Source: Leptospirales bacterium
Lineage (GTDB): Bacteria > Spirochaetota > Leptospiria > Leptospirales > Leptonemataceae
Length of the DNA stretch: 64,000 nucleotides
NCBI GenBank assembly: GCA_019694655.1
Contig: JAIBBN010000004.1
Span: 146,348-210,347 of the forward strand
Direction: 5' to 3'
Positions 13,670 through 22,249 of this stretch are shown in pieces. A model generated the notes under the pieces. The model had not been told where the DNA came from. It searched no databases and was given only the letters and a program-made list of their open reading frames with translations. A program made the position numbers and the translations under genes. The stretch's first letter is position 1. Every line of letters starts with the position of its first letter.

Positions 13670-14584
13670 TCAGTAGTCCATGCTGTGTTCGAGACGCTGC
13701 AGGACCTCATCATTGTAATCGTTATCATCTTTGCTGGCGTAGTTTGCCACCATAGAATACAAACGATAAAAGTGATCGAGCATGCGCGAATAGTAGCGCT
13801 GCTTGAAAATCATTCGGTGCGGGTTGGTCGTTGTGTTGGACATCATGCCGAGCACGGTGATATTCGTGGGCTTCATGTTGTAGCGATCCAGAATGATCAC
13901 GTCATCCATCTTTTCGTCCTGGGGACTGGGATCGATGATCAACTGAACATTGCGCACGCCCTGGCGGAAGTTGTCTTCCACGATCCGTGAGACGACCAGC
14001 GAGAGGTTGAATTGTTGCTCGGCGTCGGGCTGCTGATTGGTTTGCGTAAAGAAAAGCGTCAGCGACTTGCGCCGCGAACCAATTGCCCGCCGCTGGTCCG
14101 GATCGTTAGCGTAGATGAAGTCGAACTGAGTCAGTTCAATGCCATCGCGGGTCTGAAACTGGATGTCCGTTGCGCCTGTGACCCCGGCGCTCTTTGCCGC
14201 CTGGACCTTGTTCGCAATAGCGCCCCGAATCTGATCCACGGCGCCAAAAGAGTTCAATAGAAATTGAGGCTCTTCCTTTACGTAGCGAATGTAGGTGTTT
14301 CTGGGGGTGTACTTGATAAAACGAAAGGTGTACTCAAAGTTCAGCGGGTCCTGGGCTTCTTGAAAGCCGGTGGCGCGGTCCGCCTGCGCCATCTGTACCA
14401 GCCAGCCGACAGTTGCCAGTCGCTTGTAAGCTTCAAAAATGTTCTTCTGGTGCTGGTTTTCTGTCGCTTGCAGATCGGGGTAGTCAGCCGCTTCCTGCGT
14501 CCGGTTCACGGTGCGCGGTTGGGCGCTCAAAGAACCAATCAAAAGCGCGATCAGGCCAGCTGTTATCAGCGCGATGCGTTTCAT
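13670..14584 (-). CDS. secreted hypothetical protein (monocistronic, lower-GC gene)
   Basis: 304 aa. Sec signal MKRIALITAGLIALLIGSLSA-Q. The gene is flanked on both sides by intrinsic terminators and is visibly more AT-rich than its neighbours. No family recognised. Confidence 0.7.
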   Translation of the reverse strand: MKRIALITAGLIALLIGSLSAQPRTVNRTQEAADYPDLQATENQHQKNIFEAYKRLATVGWLVQMAQADRATGFQEAQDPLNFEYTFRFIKYTPRNTYIRYVKEEPQFLLNSFGAVDQIRGAIANKVQAAKSAGVTGATDIQFQTRDGIELTQFDFIYANDPDQRRAIGSRRKSLTLFFTQTNQQPDAEQQFNLSLVVSRIVEDNFRQGVRNVQLIIDPSPQDEKMDDVIILDRYNMKPTNITVLGMMSNTTTNPHRMIFKQRYYSRMLDHFYRLYSMVANYASKDDNDYNDEVLQRLEHSMDY

Positions 14585-14694
14585 AGTGTCCGCCGTCCTT
14601 GGTTACATTCCAGAGCAGGGCGCGGCGCCGCCACGTCCTGGTATGGATCTCTATCATTATTGGCTGGAAGGCTGCTCGAAATTAAGGGCGCCCC

Positions 14695-14723
14695 AAAAAA
14701 AAGCGGGCCGAGCCCGCTCTTTT
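14695..14723. terminator. bidirectional-looking Rho-independent terminator downstream of secG
   Basis: A8-AGCGGGC-CGA-GCCCGCT-CTTTT. On the minus strand the hairpin is followed by T8, 21 nt after the secG stop. Confidence 0.7.
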
Positions 14724-14738
14724 GACGAAGATTCGCCG

Positions 14739-15098
14739 CTAGGGGTTGAGCGGCGCTGCCGGCGGATTGGATGGAATGCTGCCGCCGCCCGGCGAATTCG
14801 CTGCCGGTGCGCCAGGAACCTGGCCAGGAATCTGGGCGCCTGGCTGCTGATTCAGACGGGGGCCAGTGTCGGCGAAGACAATGGCAGCCAGTATGGCCAG
14901 AGCAAAGAACAGACCGCCGGCCCACCACGTTGCCTTGGTCACGACGTCGACCGTGCTCGATCCGAAGGGTGTATTGGAACCGCCCCCGCCAAAAATAGCG
15001 ACGCTTCCGCCGCGACCGGATTGAATCAGAATGAACAGTAACAGCGCCGCACAGCAAATGAGAAAGAGTACAACAACAATGGTCTGCCAGATTTCCAT
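14739..15098 (-). CDS. secG: preprotein translocase subunit SecG
   Basis: An internal ATG gives MEIWQTIVVVLFLICCAALLLFILIQSGRGGSVAIFGGGGSNTPFGSS, the canonical SecG TM1 plus Gly-rich loop. A Pro/Gly-rich tail follows. Confidence 0.85.
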   Translation of the reverse strand: MEIWQTIVVVLFLICCAALLLFILIQSGRGGSVAIFGGGGSNTPFGSSTVDVVTKATWWAGGLFFALAILAAIVFADTGPRLNQQPGAQIPGQVPGAPAANSPGGGSIPSNPPAAPLNP

Positions 15099-15159
15099 CC
15101 GGGCCAGCTTCGGCCTGGATGGCGACGCGGCAAGCAGGAAAGATTGCTGGAGCAGCAGG

Positions 15160-16338
15160 TCACTCCGCGTCGTCTTCGGCGGCCGGAGCAAGGGCCGCCA
15201 ACCCGGGCAGCGTCACTCCACTTAGAAAGTCCAGCACCGTGTCGCTATCCAGCGAAACCAGGTCGACGGACCGGTCGAGCTTCCAGGCGCTCATCGATGC
15301 GGCGGTCAGTGCGCCGACGGCGACGCGCAGACCCCTGGCCTTGGCCATAGCCTGGCCGATCGCCCGGGTTCCCTTTTGAAAGGGCTCCAGTTCTACGGCG
15401 CCCAGCGGCCCGATCCAGAGCGTAGCGCCCGCTGACTTAATCGACTTCTCCATGCGGCTTGCCGTCTTCGGTCCAATGTCCAGCGCCATCCAGCGGTCCG
15501 GGATCTGGTTGGCCGCGCAAACTTTGGTCCTGGCGTCCCGCGCAAATCGATCAGCAACGACAAAATCCTGGGGCAAAAAGAACTCAGTGTCCGCCAGTTC
15601 CGACTTCTCGATGAGCTGAAATGCCCCGACCTCCAGATCGCGTTCGACAAAGCTCGCGCCCACCGGCAAGGCGCGCGATTTTAGAAACGTTGCAGCTATG
15701 CCGCCGCCGACGTGAACCTCGTCAGCCTTCTCCATGATCCTGGCCAGCATCTTGATTTTCCGTTCGAGACGCATCCCGCCCACAATGATAACCAGCGGCT
15801 TACGATCGCGGGATAGTAGAGCGCCCAGTGTGCTGTACTCTTGATAGAGCGCGGGGCCCGCGAAACGTGGAAGCAGTCGCGGAAGTGCAGTGATCGACGC
15901 CAGTTTCTTGCGGCAAACGCCGAAGGCATCATTCACATAAAGATCGCCGAGCTCTGCCAGTTGTCGTGCAAAGGCGGCGTCGCATTTTGCTTCGCCCGAA
16001 TGGATAAGCAAGTTTTCCAGCAGTACGACTTCGCCAGGCCTGGCCTGCGCGCTGCTCAATGGCGCATAGCGGACCGGCCGTCCCAGTATCTGCGTTAGAC
16101 TTTCCGCTGCCGGCGCCAGCGAGATCGATCCGCTATTGGGGTCTTCAACCTTCCCGGCGTGAGCCAGAATGATTGGCGCCGCGCCGCGCGCCAGCAGCAA
16201 CTCCACCGCTCCGCGCAGCGCTTGCAACGGCGCCTCGGATACGATTCGCCCCGAGGAGTCGATGGCCGATTCGAGATCAGCGCGTAGCAGGACGCGCTGA
16301 TCGGCAACATTGGCATTTTCCAATCTGGCGAAGACCAT
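15160..16338 (-). CDS. pgk: phosphoglycerate kinase family protein, highly divergent (several catalytic and substrate-binding motifs substituted)
   Basis: Collinear with PGK: 'QRVLLRADL', 'VVLLENL', 'YVNDAFG', 'VIIVGG', 'VGGGIAATF', 'LDIGPKT', 'LWIGPLGAVE'. The ATG at 16338 aligns with the PGK N-terminus; the ORF-track start at 16377 is a TTG. See findings for the motif losses. Confidence 0.8.
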   Translation of the reverse strand: MVFARLENANVADQRVLLRADLESAIDSSGRIVSEAPLQALRGAVELLLARGAAPIILAHAGKVEDPNSGSISLAPAAESLTQILGRPVRYAPLSSAQARPGEVVLLENLLIHSGEAKCDAAFARQLAELGDLYVNDAFGVCRKKLASITALPRLLPRFAGPALYQEYSTLGALLSRDRKPLVIIVGGMRLERKIKMLARIMEKADEVHVGGGIAATFLKSRALPVGASFVERDLEVGAFQLIEKSELADTEFFLPQDFVVADRFARDARTKVCAANQIPDRWMALDIGPKTASRMEKSIKSAGATLWIGPLGAVELEPFQKGTRAIGQAMAKARGLRVAVGALTAASMSAWKLDRSVDLVSLDSDTVLDFLSGVTLPGLAALAPAAEDDAE

Positions 16339-16405
16339 AGGCAAAGTCAGGGCGCTCCGACCGGCGCTTTCCGGCAAATGCTTTTTAGCATCCTGCCTGG
16401 TGCGA

Positions 16406-19400
16406 TCAATCTTCGCTGATCTTTATTCCAAGGATGCGTTGACTGGTGCGCCCCTGGTATTGCGTGCGCGAATAGAGAAACTTGAGTATCGAAAATTTGC
16501 GAAAATCTGTGGCCGATTCTTCCTCGTAGTTCCACAGAATCCCCCATAGAGATCCGCGACTGCGATAGCCGTTCTCTGGATCCTGAATTTGCAGGTAGGC
16601 GGCGCCGAGCAAGAGATGCGTTGTGGATTGAGCAATGCGATCATCATAGCCGCGATAATAGAGTGCGCCGAGGCCCAGAGCAGTCCAGCCTTCATCGCGG
16701 CTGTAGCTCCCGCCGCTCAAGGCCGGCAACAGAAACCAATCAAGCGAATCGCCGTCGCGATCATAGTGCCAGAAGGGCGCGAAGCTGCTCATTCGTCGTT
16801 GTTGCGAGAAGATCTCGCGCCACCATAGCAGATTCATTTGTGTTCGATCCATGTCACTCTGGTATCCGGCCAGCAAGCCGTAGCCCAGGCGAAAATCAGA
16901 GCTTCGATCATCGCCCTCGTAGGAAACAAAGTGGAATGCCAGGCTCCATTCCAGCGAGTTCGCCCGAGCCTCGCGATCAAAAAGGTACAGGAAATTCTGG
17001 CGCGAATAGCCCGGCTCGTTGCGCAAGTAGAGCCCCGCAAGGAAGGCGGTGAAGCGATCCTGTTCGCGCCAGGTCCAGAACAGCGGCATCAAATGCAGCG
17101 ATGTCTCCCTGCTAACATCATTCCAGCCATAGTATACCGGGATAACATAGGCCCAGCCGTCTTCGCCGCTGCGGCCGCCAAAGAGCGGGAAGAGCAAAAA
17201 GCGACGATAGTCCGAAGGGTCGCCGTCGACAGACGACTCATAGTCGGCCAGCAGCAGCGCGTTCCAGCTAACGCTCTTCGGCCGCGAATCCAGATAGAAG
17301 CCGGGCACAAGCAAGGTCCAGTCTTCCGACTGCTGCCCGCTGGCATCAAGCGTGGTCTCGCGATTGGAGTAGTAGAGCCAGGAAATCGTCTGGCGACTGC
17401 TCTGTGTTGGCGTCTCCCGCCCGGACGTGTAGAAGAGCGGGGTCAGAAGCGAGCTCTCGTAGAGTTCGCTTTCACGGCGGCTGTTCCAGGAATACAACGG
17501 AAATAGGCTGTGTTGACCTTTGTCGTCGCCGCCCTCGAAATAGAACGGGCCTAGCCACAGATAGGCGTCCTTTCCGCGGCGCCAGCTGAACAGCGGCAAC
17601 AGCGCAAAGCGCGATCCATCCGGATCGCTTTCGTAGTCCGCAATGATCAAACCGTTCCAGTGGAAGCGACCTCCGTCCCAGGAACAGTAAAGTCCGGGCA
17701 CAAGCAGCCAGGCATCTTCTCCCTGGTCTCTGCTTGCCGTGGCGTCGTCCAGCGATCGGTACTGGTAGGAGTAAAAGAAGAGAGGCAGCAAGAGGCTCCA
17801 GCCGCCATCGCGCGCTGATTGGCGAAAATACAACGGCGAAAGAAATAAGCTGGAGGCGGAGTCCTGTTCCCTGTCTTCCCTGTAATAATAGAACGGGAGA
17901 AAGCGCGATCCGCTGGCCTGCGGCGAATGATGCCAGTTGATCAGCGGCCACAAAATGGTGCCTTCGCTGCGCTGCTCATCGGCATCATACTCGTTCCAGT
18001 AAAGAGCTACGAGATAGGCCTCGGCGTAGGAATCGCCGCTGCGTTGCCGACCGTAGATGGGCAGAAAAAGCGGCGTCAAAGCAAAGTACTCGAGGTCCTT
18101 TTCCCTGTAAGAAAAGTAGGCGCCAAAGACGAAGGAGACCTGATCCTCGTTCGCTTCGCTCCAGCGAAACCACCACAGCGGCGCTGCGCGAAAGCTACGC
18201 TCGTCGTCGGCTCGTTCGTAGGCGATGAGACCGAAGAGCGCGGTGAGACCGAAGAAGTTGCGCGACTCCTCGCGGGAGAAGCCGGGATCGTCGGAGAGTT
18301 CGCCGCCTTCGTCTCCCTGACGACGGAAGGCAGAGCGGCGCGGCGGCGCATCCTCCGGCAACGTTTGAACAGTTTCAAAGTCCGGCGCCTCAAACTGTAC
18401 GCCCTCGATGGCGCTGCCGTCGGACGGGACGGCCGCCTGGCCATCGGCGGCGTTGGCGGCCGACTGCGATGCATTCGATGGCGCCGCCGGACGGAGAAAG
18501 CTGGTGCGCCAGGAGAGGCGAAACAGGTTGTAGAGCAGGCTGATATCCTGGTCGTAGCTGAACTCTTGCATGCCCGGCGGCGCAGCGGCCGCCTCCTGGA
18601 GACTGAGTTGTTGCGAGAAAGCAAGGCCGACGGCGTAGAGATTGACCAATTTGCTGCGGTCTTCGTAGCGCAAGCGCAGCGGAATCAAGAGATTCCCGGA
18701 ACTTTCCGGCGTTTGCCAGTCAAAGTAGAACGGAATAAAGCCGACGTAACTTTCGCCTTCCGCCGGGCGCTGCAGATCGTAGTAGTTTATGATCCAGACG
18801 GAACTCCGCGAGCCGTCGCGCGAGTAGTAGTGCAGGGGGCTGAAGGACAGTTGAGCGTCATCACTTGAGTCCGGCTGAAAATAGAACGGGAAAAAGTAAA
18901 GGTAGCTTCCTGGCGAGTAGTAAAAGAGCGGCAGCAACCAGAGGCGTTCAAGGTCGCCATCGCGATTGGTTTTCCAGTGGGCAAGCAATGCGGCGGTTGA
19001 GGTTCCTTCCTCCGAGTCAGCGCTTCGATACACCAGCGGCAAGAGCGGCGCGTGCCAGTGCGTATGGTATTGTAGCTGCGTGCCGTTTTGAATGATCGAG
19101 TCGGAATAATAGAACAGAGGATTGGCCTGCACAACGGCCTCGGAATTCCAGCCATGCTTCTGCCGGTGCGATTCGTGGGCGCCGTAGTGCAGCAGCATGA
19201 AGTAACTCAGTAACTTATCGTCCTCCCGCTCCCGTCTGTGCCAGTAGAGCAGGGGCGCCAGCCAGCTCAGCTCCGTTTCGCTGCGATCATAGTAGAATAG
19301 AGGAGCTACAATGCTGCGCTGCAATTGCACATCTCCGCGTTGCCGCGATCGGTAGTAGCCGAGCAGTGAAAGCATCGCAAAATCGTGCAGTTGCAGATCG

Positions 19401-20428
19401 GCGTTCTCCCGCGTGCGCCAGCCAAGCAAGGGTAAGAAGATCCACTGCGATCGGTGCTCGCTGATCGAGTGGTAAATAAGCGGCAGCAGCGCCTGGCTCG
19501 ATTGATGCGCCGCCGGATCGTCGCGCCAGTAGACCAGGCCGTACCAATTGGTTCGGCGCTGCTCGCCCTGGGCGTAGCGGTAAAACACTGGCGATGCCAG
19601 CGTGCTTTCATCGCTGGCATCCAGGCGATCGTAGTAGAACAGCCAGCTCAACAAGCTGAATTCCCCCGGTCGCCAGTCGCTCACAAACAGCGGAGTCAGC
19701 AGGAAGTTCCGTTCCGGAGTATCGCTTCCTTCGTGGTAGAAGAGCGGCGTGATCGTTGCACCGTAGCCATCCGCGTCGCGGGCGCTACGGTGCAGCAACG
19801 GGAATAGAGTAAAACTTCCGGAGGCGCCGTCGTGGCGCGAGCTTCGAAAAAGAATCGGCCAGAGCGCCCAGTAGCTGTCCTCAGCGCGCCGAACATGGTA
19901 GAAGAGCGGGAGTACATAGCTCCATGTTTCCGTCTGGTCTCTCCAGCGAAATCCAAGCGGAGTCATCAGGAAGGATTGCTCGGCGGCGCTTCTGTAATAG
20001 TAGAAGGGAAAGACAAAGTGCGATTGCCGATCATCGATCAGGCTGTGGCGCGCACCGTAAAAGGGCCAGAAGTAGAAGGAGCGAAATTCCGGATACCTGG
20101 TGTAACGCGTCTGGCCCCAGAAAACAGAGAGCGACCAGTGTTCGGGCCAGGACTCGGCCTGGACAATCAACATGTCCACGGCAATCTTCTCTTCCTTTTC
20201 GCTGCCCCGGTAGGTACGGGGCTCAAGATCATCCCAATCCCACAGCCTGGGCGCTGCCATCAGAGCGCTGGCTGGCAGACAGATCGTCAGCAGGCAGAAG
20301 AGCAGGCGCGCAAGTCCCGGCCCTGGCAAACGACGGCGGGAGCGCGCCCTAGCAGGCATGAACCTTTGGACGCCCAATCCAGCGCTCCGGTTCAGCCAGG
20401 TCTGCGCTGCCGACTCTTTGCGGGGCAT
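16406..20428 (-). CDS. very large secreted repeat protein (about 50 short 'hydrophobic-P-L-F-Y' repeats); family not recognised
   Basis: Long uninterrupted ORF. Signal-like 'RRRLPGPGLARLLFCLLTICLPASALMA'. Recurrent motifs include LPLFYH, TPLFYH, APLFYY, NPLFYY, LPLFYY, FPFYF, IPFYF, LPFYYY, LFPLYSW and LMPLFW. The start is uncertain (ATG at 20428 or 20359). Confidence 0.8.
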   Translation of the reverse strand: MPRKESAAQTWLNRSAGLGVQRFMPARARSRRRLPGPGLARLLFCLLTICLPASALMAAPRLWDWDDLEPRTYRGSEKEEKIAVDMLIVQAESWPEHWSLSVFWGQTRYTRYPEFRSFYFWPFYGARHSLIDDRQSHFVFPFYYYRSAAEQSFLMTPLGFRWRDQTETWSYVLPLFYHVRRAEDSYWALWPILFRSSRHDGASGSFTLFPLLHRSARDADGYGATITPLFYHEGSDTPERNFLLTPLFVSDWRPGEFSLLSWLFYYDRLDASDESTLASPVFYRYAQGEQRRTNWYGLVYWRDDPAAHQSSQALLPLIYHSISEHRSQWIFLPLLGWRTRENADLQLHDFAMLSLLGYYRSRQRGDVQLQRSIVAPLFYYDRSETELSWLAPLLYWHRREREDDKLLSYFMLLHYGAHESHRQKHGWNSEAVVQANPLFYYSDSIIQNGTQLQYHTHWHAPLLPLVYRSADSEEGTSTAALLAHWKTNRDGDLERLWLLPLFYYSPGSYLYFFPFYFQPDSSDDAQLSFSPLHYYSRDGSRSSVWIINYYDLQRPAEGESYVGFIPFYFDWQTPESSGNLLIPLRLRYEDRSKLVNLYAVGLAFSQQLSLQEAAAAPPGMQEFSYDQDISLLYNLFRLSWRTSFLRPAAPSNASQSAANAADGQAAVPSDGSAIEGVQFEAPDFETVQTLPEDAPPRRSAFRRQGDEGGELSDDPGFSREESRNFFGLTALFGLIAYERADDERSFRAAPLWWFRWSEANEDQVSFVFGAYFSYREKDLEYFALTPLFLPIYGRQRSGDSYAEAYLVALYWNEYDADEQRSEGTILWPLINWHHSPQASGSRFLPFYYYREDREQDSASSLFLSPLYFRQSARDGGWSLLLPLFFYSYQYRSLDDATASRDQGEDAWLLVPGLYCSWDGGRFHWNGLIIADYESDPDGSRFALLPLFSWRRGKDAYLWLGPFYFEGGDDKGQHSLFPLYSWNSRRESELYESSLLTPLFYTSGRETPTQSSRQTISWLYYSNRETTLDASGQQSEDWTLLVPGFYLDSRPKSVSWNALLLADYESSVDGDPSDYRRFLLFPLFGGRSGEDGWAYVIPVYYGWNDVSRETSLHLMPLFWTWREQDRFTAFLAGLYLRNEPGYSRQNFLYLFDREARANSLEWSLAFHFVSYEGDDRSSDFRLGYGLLAGYQSDMDRTQMNLLWWREIFSQQRRMSSFAPFWHYDRDGDSLDWFLLPALSGGSYSRDEGWTALGLGALYYRGYDDRIAQSTTHLLLGAAYLQIQDPENGYRSRGSLWGILWNYEEESATDFRKFSILKFLYSRTQYQGRTSQRILGIKISED

Positions 20429-20495
20429 CGCAGCATATTCGCCTTTTTTGCTTGTGCGGTGCATAAAGGGGGCTAAAGGGGTCACTGGACCGGGC

Positions 20496-21053
20496 ATGAA
20501 GCTCATCAAGCGATACGCAAACCGCAGGCTCTATGACTCGGAGACCAGCAAGACCATCACCCTGGATGACGTTGCCGACCTGATCAAGGCAGGCAATGAG
20601 GTGCGGGTAGTCGACAACATCAGCGGCGAGGACATTACTGCTCGGGTGCTGGGCCAGACATTTTTGAAGATCAGCACCGACCAGCAAAACCTTGAATTCA
20701 GCACCTTCCTTCTAACCGCATTGATCCGCGAGGTCTCCAGTAATGTTTCGCGGCTCTTCAGCCAGCTGGTGGAGGGGGGAATCGGGATCGGCCAGCTGAC
20801 ACTTGACCGCCTGGAGAAAATCGTTCAGGGCATGGTCGAACAGGGGGAGATCAATCTCTCGGAAAAGAACACCTACCTGGACCGCGTTTTGACCCAGATC
20901 AAGAATGCCAGCGAGCGCATGCTGCGCAGCGCGGCCGAAGGCCGCGATGTGCTGCGCTCCGAATTGCTCGATGTGCGCAACCGTCGGGTCGAAGAGCTTT
21001 CAGAAAAGCTGGACGAAATGGCCCGGATCATCAAAGAAATTCAAAGAAAATAG
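20496..21053 (+). CDS. phaR: polyhydroxyalkanoate synthesis repressor PhaR-like DNA-binding protein
   Basis: An internal ATG gives 'MKLIKRYANRRLYDSETSKTITLDDVADLIKAGNEVRVVD', the conserved PHB/PHA accumulation regulator N-terminal domain. Confidence 0.85.
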   Translation: MKLIKRYANRRLYDSETSKTITLDDVADLIKAGNEVRVVDNISGEDITARVLGQTFLKISTDQQNLEFSTFLLTALIREVSSNVSRLFSQLVEGGIGIGQLTLDRLEKIVQGMVEQGEINLSEKNTYLDRVLTQIKNASERMLRSAAEGRDVLRSELLDVRNRRVEELSEKLDEMARIIKEIQRK

Positions 21054-21148
21054 CAGCCGAAGCTTGATTCCGACCGATATTCTCTGCTTGCTCCTCAAGG
21101 GCGAGGGGGCCGCGGGCCGATCCGTGGTACCAAAGGAGCTTTGATCCT

Positions 21149-22249
21149 ATGACCCGCGCCCGCCTTTGCATTTATGTCGCCCTGGTTCTATGCCTCAGCG
21201 GCGCGGCCCCCGCTGCGCTCGTTGCCGGTTCCGACGATGACGCCCGCAATTACTGGCAGGCGCGCTACGACGAGGCGATGCGCAATCTGCAGACCGGCTC
21301 CGCCGAGGAGCGCGCACGCGCGGCTATGCTGCTTGGTGCGCACCGTCAATATGAGTTTGTGCGTCCGCTGGCCAACGAACTGCTGCGTGAACTGGATGAT
21401 CCGGCCAAGCGCAGCACTCCAATCAATGATCCATATGTAAAAACAGCCATGGCCTGGGCGCTGGGCGAAATCGCTCATCCAATCAGCGTCGGCCCTCTGG
21501 TCAAGGCCCTGGAAATCAGCCGCAAAATTGTTGGCGAACAGATCCAGCAGGCGACGGAACGCCAGACGCGCGAGCGCCAGCGCCTCGAACAACTGCATCA
21601 GGCCAATGCCAACGAATTCTTAGTCGGTACGGTGAATCTTTCTCCAGACCGGCCGGCGCCCTTTAATCAGCCTGGCTTCAGCTTTGGCTACAGCCCGGAT
21701 ATGATGTACAGCGTTTCGGACAGCTTCAAGTCGATGGATCCGGACGTTAACGATGAAGGCCATCGTCTTCGCTTGCAGAACTACAACTACCTCAACCTGA
21801 CGCGTCAGATCTTCCTGTCGCTTGGCAACATTGGATCGGAAGATTCGGTGCAGGCTCTTGCCGGATTCTTGAAGGATGAGATCCCCATGATACGCTACAT
21901 GGCGGCGGCGGCCCTTGGTCGTTCGCGCAGCCAGCGCGCTCTGGCCGAAATCAACGCACGTTTTAACGAAGAATCGGATCCCTATGTGAAAGTTGGTCTT
22001 TCCTATGGCGGCCTCACCATTGACAAGAGCCAGGCGCCGCTATTCATGAACCTGCTTGCCGCACTGAAAAGCGATGATACCTACGTGCGCTACCATGCAG
22101 CTGCGGCGCTGCGCGAATTGGGCCTGGGTGAGAGCGTCGAATCGCTGCGCGCCGCGCGTCTGATCGAATCGGAGCCTCAGATTCAGGGCATCCTGGACGA
22201 GGCCATAGTCAAGGCCGAGATTGATAACATCATCCCGGTAAATTATTGA
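21149..22249 (+). CDS. secreted HEAT-repeat protein
   Basis: Signal peptide MTRARLCIYVALVLCLSGAAPAAL. PBS-lyase/HEAT-like repeats: 'RARAAMLLGAHR', 'VKTAMAWALGEIAHPISVGPLVKAL', 'IRYMAAAALGRSRSQRAL', 'VRYHAAAALRELG'. An AAAGGAG Shine-Dalgarno sequence is present. Confidence 0.75.
   Translation: MTRARLCIYVALVLCLSGAAPAALVAGSDDDARNYWQARYDEAMRNLQTGSAEERARAAMLLGAHRQYEFVRPLANELLRELDDPAKRSTPINDPYVKTAMAWALGEIAHPISVGPLVKALEISRKIVGEQIQQATERQTRERQRLEQLHQANANEFLVGTVNLSPDRPAPFNQPGFSFGYSPDMMYSVSDSFKSMDPDVNDEGHRLRLQNYNYLNLTRQIFLSLGNIGSEDSVQALAGFLKDEIPMIRYMAAAALGRSRSQRALAEINARFNEESDPYVKVGLSYGGLTIDKSQAPLFMNLLAALKSDDTYVRYHAAAALRELGLGESVESLRAARLIESEPQIQGILDEAIVKAEIDNIIPVNY

Follow-up and report, generated by a model that had tools for sequence, protein, structure and literature searches.

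The closest described relatives of the gene analysed here form the LA_1737 family, which takes its name from a locus in the pathogen Leptospira interrogans and is listed in NCBIfam as NF047486 ('LA_1737_Cterm'). The family has a database name, yet no described function, and we found no Pfam model, paper or related solved structure for it (literature searches on LA_1737, on LA1737 Leptospira and on a beta-hairpin repeat in Leptospira returned nothing relevant). The gene lies on the minus strand of a stretch of 64,000 nucleotides from a Leptospirales bacterium (contig JAIBBN010000004.1), which we will call the window, and encodes a repeat protein of roughly 150 kDa with 17% aromatic residues; residue numbers below refer to its 1340-residue form, starting at ATG 20428. 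NF047486 matches residues 1185–1336 over model positions 1–158 (E 4.3e-45, 153.5 bits against a curated cut-off of 60 bits), covering the last 152 residues of the protein, while a six-frame search of the window's genome with the same model gives 117.9 bits and a paralogue search finds a single copy. These sequence matches strongly support the assignment of the window gene as a single-copy member of the spirochaete LA_1737 family. It is a fairly divergent further orthologue of a named family, not a new kind of system; what is new here is the homology of the two arms that make up the protein, the co-variation of their lengths and the statistics of terminal residues across relatives. The preliminary description, made from the letters of the window, could not assign the repeats to any named family and asked for a characterised family with known function as its refutation: the NF047486 match supplies the name, but as the family is without a characterised function, this view is only half refuted.

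In the genomes sampled, the family occurs in part of the spirochaetes. A word-indexed protein search returned 38 relatives of 1036–1888 aa covering up to 98% of the query, all of them unnamed or 'hypothetical' and none with a Pfam domain, and phmmer with the C-terminal half against 1.84 billion cluster representatives found 268 at E ≤1e-3, of which 119 reach E ≤1e-30. Relatives range from 810 to 2524 aa and are 21–51% identical to the window protein; 114 of them have the complete set of N-cap, mid and C-terminal anchors, and NF047486 scores above its cut-off in 31 of 41. The model matches 107 of 401 sampled Spirochaetota genomes, among them 72 of 75 in the sister family of Leptospira-like genera and 16 of 24 in the window's own family (for example Leptonema illini DSM 21528, where Lepil_2440, WP_143464797.1, is annotated 'LA_1737 family protein'), with many environmental spirochaetes included; it was not found in three other well-sampled spirochaete families (0/38, 0/50, 0/17) or in 14 control genomes (0/14). 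Copy number varies: Leptonema illini has two paralogues in tandem, one of 2266 and one of 1284 aa (locus L018, 1696–12417), and two or three copies are seen in some genomes against one in the window genome. The same-genus orthologue is only 35% identical to the window protein, compared to 52–82% for neighbouring genes; the LA_1737 protein thus evolves fast, as exposed or structural repeat proteins typically do. A Pfam scan of the whole protein gave no match apart from a sub-threshold Spt5 CTD, searches of the PDB, whether with the protein's own sequence or with a profile of the family, gave none, and neither Pfam nor NCBIfam indicates a catalytic or known binding domain.

The periodicity reported originally is borne out by counting, since the strict motif xxP[LFIVM][FLYIVWH][YHFWSGRV] occurs 31 times in the window protein, while 2000 composition-preserving shuffles contain it 3.1 times on average (standard deviation 1.7, maximum 10). 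A hidden Markov model (HMM) of the repeat finds 32 Pro-containing units, spaced by 16–20 aa or multiples thereof. The period in the window protein is 17–18 aa, the commonest spacings in the family as a whole are 17, about 36 and about 53 aa, and the iterated family-wide consensus unit is YFGLLPLFYYSRDPDSSL. The earlier estimate of 50–57 units agrees with the ~57 hairpins in AlphaFold2 models (see below), but is right only when degenerate units lacking the proline are counted. There is no tandem repeat at the DNA level in the gene, and so the array is old and degenerate. Prolines are the only near-invariant or invariant columns in family alignments. In 2667 family units, where positions -2 to +3 relative to Pro are dictated by the search pattern and flanking positions are free, hydrophobicity is maximal at -2 to +1, aromatics reach 45–100% at +2 to +4 (Y/F/W/H still 45% at +4), Y/F/W/H make up 29–33% at -3 to -5, outside the positions set by the pattern, and charged residues account for 30–43% from +5 to +11. 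The order within each unit is thus a hydrophobic-Pro-hydrophobic turn with a collar of F/Y/W/H, then Arg/Lys, then Asp/Glu/Ser/Gly at the opposite turn, with aliphatic L/I/V/F at four consecutive positions of the hydrophobic edge.

What fold do these units form? AlphaFold2 models were built with family alignments, the two halves being folded separately. For residues 700–1340 the mean predicted local distance difference test (pLDDT) is 78, with 184 residues at ≥90, a predicted template modelling score (pTM) of 0.44 and 65 strands; for residues 58–700 the mean pLDDT is 60 and the pTM 0.35, with 49 strands. Together there are 114 predicted strands in ~57 hairpins and almost no helix; the strands have a median length of 6 aa, with 9 of the 114 at ≥9 aa, and the turns a median of 3 aa. 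When the motifs are mapped on the model, Pro sits in a three-residue turn in 25 of 31 cases, and this turn joins strand A, at its hydrophobic-hydrophobic end, to strand B (F-Y-Y-x-R), while the other turn is rich in D/G/S/E. The C-terminal module contains strands with alternating G/A, such as TALGLGALYY. The models strongly support a picture in which each arm is a long antiparallel sheet, hydrophobic and Pro-studded along one edge and charged along the other. The gradient runs from hydrophobic tip to charged base, and the hydrophobicity of the arms sits on the edge of the sheet and not on its face.

Together with the signal peptides of the family, the 114 short strands fit the original proposal of a secreted all-beta protein of stacked beta-hairpins, and no Pfam repeat family, PDB sequence or global fold is matched, although the C-terminal match to NF047486 means that the architecture is not wholly unrecognised as had been described. 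Foldseek of both half-models against the PDB gave no global fold (template modelling score, TM, ≤0.13; root-mean-square deviation, rmsd, 23–55 Å) and no match to a propeller, barrel, cocoon or parallel solenoid. The matches, with E values as low as 3e-7, are to teneurin YD shells, to an Rhs core, to the ApoB100 belt and to WD40 proteins with several propellers, but the match to teneurin-3 at E 3e-7 has a TM of 0.10 and an rmsd of 45 Å, and the likeness is that of a local antiparallel meander only. The two specific shapes suggested in the preliminary description are not supported. For a very large barrel the predicted strands are too short, and nothing closes into a barrel; a beta-solenoid is not borne out by the Foldseek matches, which are all antiparallel meanders (YD shells, WD40, ApoB belt), none of them parallel. 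A closed, 6–8-bladed beta-propeller of the WD40 or similar type was considered and rejected, since the WD40 and DDB1 matches have a TM of 0.07–0.11 and an rmsd of 25–45 Å and there is no Pfam repeat. High local confidence combined with a low pTM fits an extended, flexible sheet, as far as the models go.

The protein consists of two homologous arms, each of ~600 aa and ~28–33 hairpins, joined by a disordered linker, an arrangement that is strongly supported. Two blocks and a linker had already been recognised, and both are confirmed, although the disordered stretch (~647–722, pLDDT <50) is ~75 aa long and not ~110. BLASTP aligns arm 1 to arm 2 collinearly (24% identity, E 7e-11) and the C-terminal HMM of NF047486 also weakly matches residues 813–892, which makes the protein an ancient tandem duplication of a 'cap + array' unit. 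Arm lengths, measured between HMM anchors (N-cap, mid module and C-terminal end) in the 114 relatives, are correlated with r = 0.67 and Spearman 0.72, at a mean N/C ratio of 1.00. The correlation persists in evolutionary changes: in 36 independent sister pairs, drawn from a tree of the anchor regions only, the changes in the two arms have a Spearman coefficient of 0.55 (p 5e-4), and both arms change in the same direction in 18 of 22 pairs in which each changes by at least one hairpin (p 0.004). Equal arm length is, from these comparisons, the clearest functional constraint that we found on LA_1737 proteins.

Export through Sec with a cleavable signal peptide of the signal peptidase I (SPase-I) type is strongly supported by family comparison, which agrees with the signal peptide noted originally. 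N-termini across the family look like ordinary SPase-I signal peptides stopping directly before the W-x-D-L cap; the median start of the conserved mature N-terminus (W-x-D-L-x-E...GSEKEEK), taken over 94 relatives, is residue 29, and the probable cut site of the window protein, between MPARARSRRRLPGPGLARLLFCLLTICLPASALMA and AP, lies just before it. Any Cys ahead of the cap is found in just 30 of the 94, so members of the family are not in general lipoproteins. At the other end, 40 of 75 relatives with the terminal motif stop exactly at ...LG[IV]-x-[F/L/I/V], 26 of these with Phe, and 53 of 75 stop within one residue of that position. This end resembles, by analogy, the outer-membrane beta-signal and can be taken as a membrane hint.

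How could such a protein be used? We propose, with about an even chance of being right, that it is a structural protein of the envelope which buries its hydrophobic edge in a membrane or in the sister arm. It would be a structural component of the envelope, neither enzyme nor channel, and the continuous hydrophobic edge along ~57 hairpins would have to be buried. From a lipid core outwards, aliphatic residues are expected, then Tyr/Trp, then Arg/Lys, then Asp/Glu. The residue order in the hairpins fits this sequence and the C-terminal ends are beta-signal-like, and therefore the most likely mode of burial would be edge-on in one leaflet, probably of the outer membrane. Alternatively, or in addition, the edge could be covered by that of the sister arm, which is equally long, and the arms would therefore keep the same length in evolution. 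With an edge of this extent the protein probably contributes substantially to the structure of the spirochaete envelope, and locating it, together with whatever covers the edge, could uncover a new architecture of the envelope as well as a conserved antigen, at the surface or in the periplasm. A more elaborate arrangement, in which the two arms meet tip to tip via their Pro turns inside the outer membrane in a wall ~40 Å tall, we consider very unlikely, and equally so its details, i.e. a central hydrophobic band flanked by aromatic collars and by Arg/Lys and acidic rims, closed into a fence or a very wide ring. If true, such a wall would match that of a transmembrane beta-barrel in its chemical profile and be made from two half-height hairpin arrays, it would represent a new way to make membrane-spanning beta structure, and it would explain both the arm-length co-variation and the beta-signal-like C-terminus.

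Several points weigh against the proposed envelope role. Six-residue strands are unable to span a bilayer. The pTM is only 0.35–0.44, so the overall shape could, judging from the models, be a flat ribbon, a coil or a closed shell, and a pairing of the arms with each other is hypothetical, the arms having been folded separately. The co-variation of the arms could come from selection on total size instead of pairing, and a few proteins in the anchor set are fragments or mis-anchored, which adds noise. The window protein itself ends in ...ILGIKI plus SED, with Ile where most relatives have Phe; in its clade a tail of 3–4 residues extends past the usual terminal position, and Ile or Val replaces Phe. 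No gene context ties the protein to an envelope pathway, as neighbours differ by lineage.

Of the other readings, a soluble periplasmic or secreted binding scaffold (an adhesin, or a glycan or peptidoglycan binder) appears unlikely. Its aromatic hairpins would serve as ligand sites, as in choline-binding or other hairpin-repeat proteins, and the protein would suit this role in being exported, highly repetitive and aromatic-rich, in its fast sequence evolution and in the widely varying copy number of its repeats, which gives the spread of sizes from 810 to 2524 aa among relatives. However, models of CW_binding, SLH, LysM, SH3 and other binding repeats find no match, and a continuous edge that is aliphatic at four consecutive positions exceeds the needs of ligand pockets. 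The gene follows murJ in one Leptospira genus, which would also suit this role, but the linkage is limited to that genus. We regard as still less probable, indeed quite improbable, an integral outer-membrane beta-barrel or string of barrels, assembled by the beta-barrel assembly machinery (BAM), in which the hairpins would be transmembrane strands. It would account for the signal peptide, the all-beta fold, the 17% aromatic residues, the G/A-alternating strands of the C-terminal module (TALGLGALYY) and the terminal Phe that follows an alternating hydrophobic strand in most relatives, although the window protein is without this Phe. The geometry speaks against it, since the median strand has 6 residues, only 9 of 114 have ≥9, both turns are of 2–3 residues, leaving no long extracellular loops, and hydrophobicity follows the strand from tip to base and does not alternate between faces. 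Moreover, no outer-membrane-protein family of Pfam or NCBIfam matches, and Foldseek returned no barrel, its sole BAM match having E 0.14 and a TM of 0.08.

The remaining two readings draw in part on the Foldseek matches. A periplasm-spanning lipid conduit of the TamB/AsmA kind, with a repeating beta-groove, is scarcely probable: the protein is all-beta, of great length and located in the envelope, its hydrophobic surface is extensive and the lipid-binding belt of ApoB100 is among the matches, but AsmA, DUF490 and TamB models are unmatched, the signal peptide is by family comparison cleavable and not an inner-membrane anchor, a groove would need longer strands, and aromatics lie near the tip on both faces, so that there is no single hydrophobic face. 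A divergent YD/Rhs-type shell around a cargo or toxin domain is extremely unlikely, even though teneurin YD shells (first for the C half, ranks 2–4 for the N half) and a Salmonella bongori Rhs core are among the matches with the best E values, and units often read F-Y-Y-D-R-x-x, recalling Y-x-Y-D. With a TM of 0.10–0.12 and an rmsd >30 Å these matches amount to a local beta-meander only, RHS_repeat and Rhs-core models of Pfam and NCBIfam are unmatched at E ≤1, and there is no C-terminal toxin, autoproteolysis motif or immunity gene; the C-terminus is instead the most conserved module of the family.

The coordinates of the gene, the modules of its product and its neighbourhood are collected in Table 1. 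The reading frame described initially is real: the ORF (open reading frame) listing gives a minus-strand frame, 16406..20509, which starts with a TTG, has at most 1367 aa and ends in a stop codon at 16406–16408. The in-frame ATG at 20428 taken as the start in the preliminary description yields 1340 aa and the public database call, at ATG 20359, yields 1317 aa plus stop; in-frame starts upstream of the latter are 20428, 20464 and 20509. An AAAGG sequence stands 3 nt upstream of ATG 20359, and with this start the Arg-rich n-region and the h-region are normal and end in ASALMA before AP, which makes 20359 the most plausible start on sequence grounds. The mature protein is identical whichever start is chosen. 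The ATG at 20462–20464 would give the window protein an unusually long n-region of 48 aa, and therefore the start has probably moved downstream to 20359 relative to the same-genus orthologue. The same ATG (20462–20464, minus strand) sits inside a conserved element of the intergenic gap (MHRTSKKG...) and matches the probable start of that orthologue (MRRTSKKF...). The GC content of the gene resembles that of its surroundings.

Table 1. Features of the LA_1737-family locus, in window coordinates
Feature	Position	Strand	Basis and remarks
LA_1737-family gene	16406..20359	-	Public gene call, 1317 aa plus stop
Predicted Sec signal peptide MPARARSRRRLPGPGLARLLFCLLTICLPASALMA, SPase-I type	20258..20359	-	Sequence and family N-termini
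N-terminal cap (W-D-W-D-D-L-E...GSEKEEK...W-x-x-H-W...Y-P-x-F-R-S), runs into first hairpins	20024..20257	-	Alignment consensus; segment HMM matches 122 relatives
Arm 1 hairpin array, residues ~88-646, 49 predicted strands	18491..20167	-	AlphaFold2, pLDDT 60, patchy
Ala/Pro/Ser/Asp-rich disordered linker, residues ~647-722	18263..18490	-	pLDDT <50 in both half-models
Mid module opening arm 2 (FGL..YER.D..F....PL.W...), homologue of N-cap region	17789..18262	-	Family alignments, arm BLASTP, HMM
Arm 2 hairpin array, residues 723-1184; with C-terminal module 65 predicted strands	16877..18262	-	AlphaFold2, pLDDT 78, long stretches >90
LA_1737_Cterm module, residues 1185-1336, ends ...FSILKFLYSRTQYQGRTSQRILGIKI then short tail SED	16421..16876	-	NCBIfam NF047486
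PGK-family paralogue	15160-16377	-	Pfam PGK E 4e-90; NCBIfam equivalog 286 bits vs cut-off 883
secG	14739-15191	-	Downstream, same strand
phaR, divergent neighbour	20496..21053	+	Pfam PHB_acc_N E 8e-23; TIGR01848 below cut-off
Conserved 16-nt element CTTGTGCGGTGCATAA, TGC-N3-GCA inside	20451..20466		30 nt upstream of phaR start

The gene order is an FcpB-like 304-aa gene, secG, the PGK paralogue and the LA_1737-family gene, with phaR, HEAT-repeat, SH3 and pseudouridine synthase genes running divergently. The genomic context described before is therefore confirmed, with the PGK-family gene and secG downstream on the same strand and phaR (start 20496) divergent across a gap of 67–136 nt. A consensus scan of 14500–21200 found no promoter-like site, the upstream region of the large gene included; the gene is probably co-transcribed with the PGK paralogue and secG (14739..16377), since there is no terminator-like site before ~14700. 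The 304-aa secreted protein (13670–14584, minus strand) matches the FcpB, LIC_12096 and LenA NCBIfam models over residues 143–304, all below cut-offs, and the orthologue from another genus carries a Pfam flag for FcpB (flagellar-coiling protein B); it may be a flagellar-sheath or Len-like protein.

The synteny block is kept in three genomes of the window's family (its own, another of its genus and one of another genus) and is absent from Leptonema, Leptospira and other sampled genomes, while three genera share the placement of the PGK gene between the large gene and secG. The orthologue of one Leptospira genus (1810–1990 aa) follows ~76 nt after murJ, on the same strand (L024, 6413–13589; L011, L020), an adjacency not seen in two other genera of Leptospira's family. 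In a distant branch (~21% identity) a gene for a 193-aa exported partner overlaps the start of the large gene (L027, 5438–6019), and no homologue of this partner was detected in the window genome. Across 13 Leptospirales loci no neighbour is shared beyond the synteny block of close relatives. The synteny is lineage-specific and therefore says little on function.

A control region shared by phaR and the large gene had been postulated, and the gap does hold a conserved element resembling a PhaR box, which has been described as GC-N3-GC and TGC-rich (PMC10888616). The CTTGTGCGGTGCATAA element occurs at one site in the window, and its core, CTTGTGCGGYGCATAA, is identical in the same-genus genome and in another genus, though in different reading frames relative to the large gene. 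TGC-N3-GCA within it fits the GC-N3-GC box (PMC10888616), and CTTGTGCGGTGCATAA is probably the phaR auto-operator.

How does the protein compare, then, with known systems? With the LA_1737 family it shares a full-length match to the 158-position C-terminal model, far over the cut-off, the succession of signal peptide, W-x-D-L cap, array, mid module, array and C-terminal module, and the taxonomic order, Leptospirales; it differs in being 21–51% identical to other members and, with its clade, in the tail and the Ile/Val end. Outer-membrane beta-barrels have in common with it the Sec signal peptide and the aromatic-rich, all-beta character, and most of its relatives also the hydrophobic end strand with terminal Phe, but its strands are of half the membrane-crossing length, no barrel is predicted and the terminal Phe is missing. 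YD/Rhs shells, as in teneurins and the Rhs cores of the type VI secretion system (T6SS), are likewise runs of ~20-aa antiparallel hairpins rich in Tyr and Asp and give the best local 3Di similarity. In contrast to them, the window protein has shorter strands, no plug, cargo or autoproteolysis elements, no sequence-model match and TM values ≤0.12, and its Pro-containing hydrophobic turn is absent from YD repeats. Finally, the beta-belt of ApoB100, also among the Foldseek matches, is a very long antiparallel meander with a hydrophobic surface needing lipid cover, as the arms would be; there is no homology between the two (TM 0.12–0.13), and while ApoB is hydrophobic on one face, the window protein is hydrophobic on one edge.

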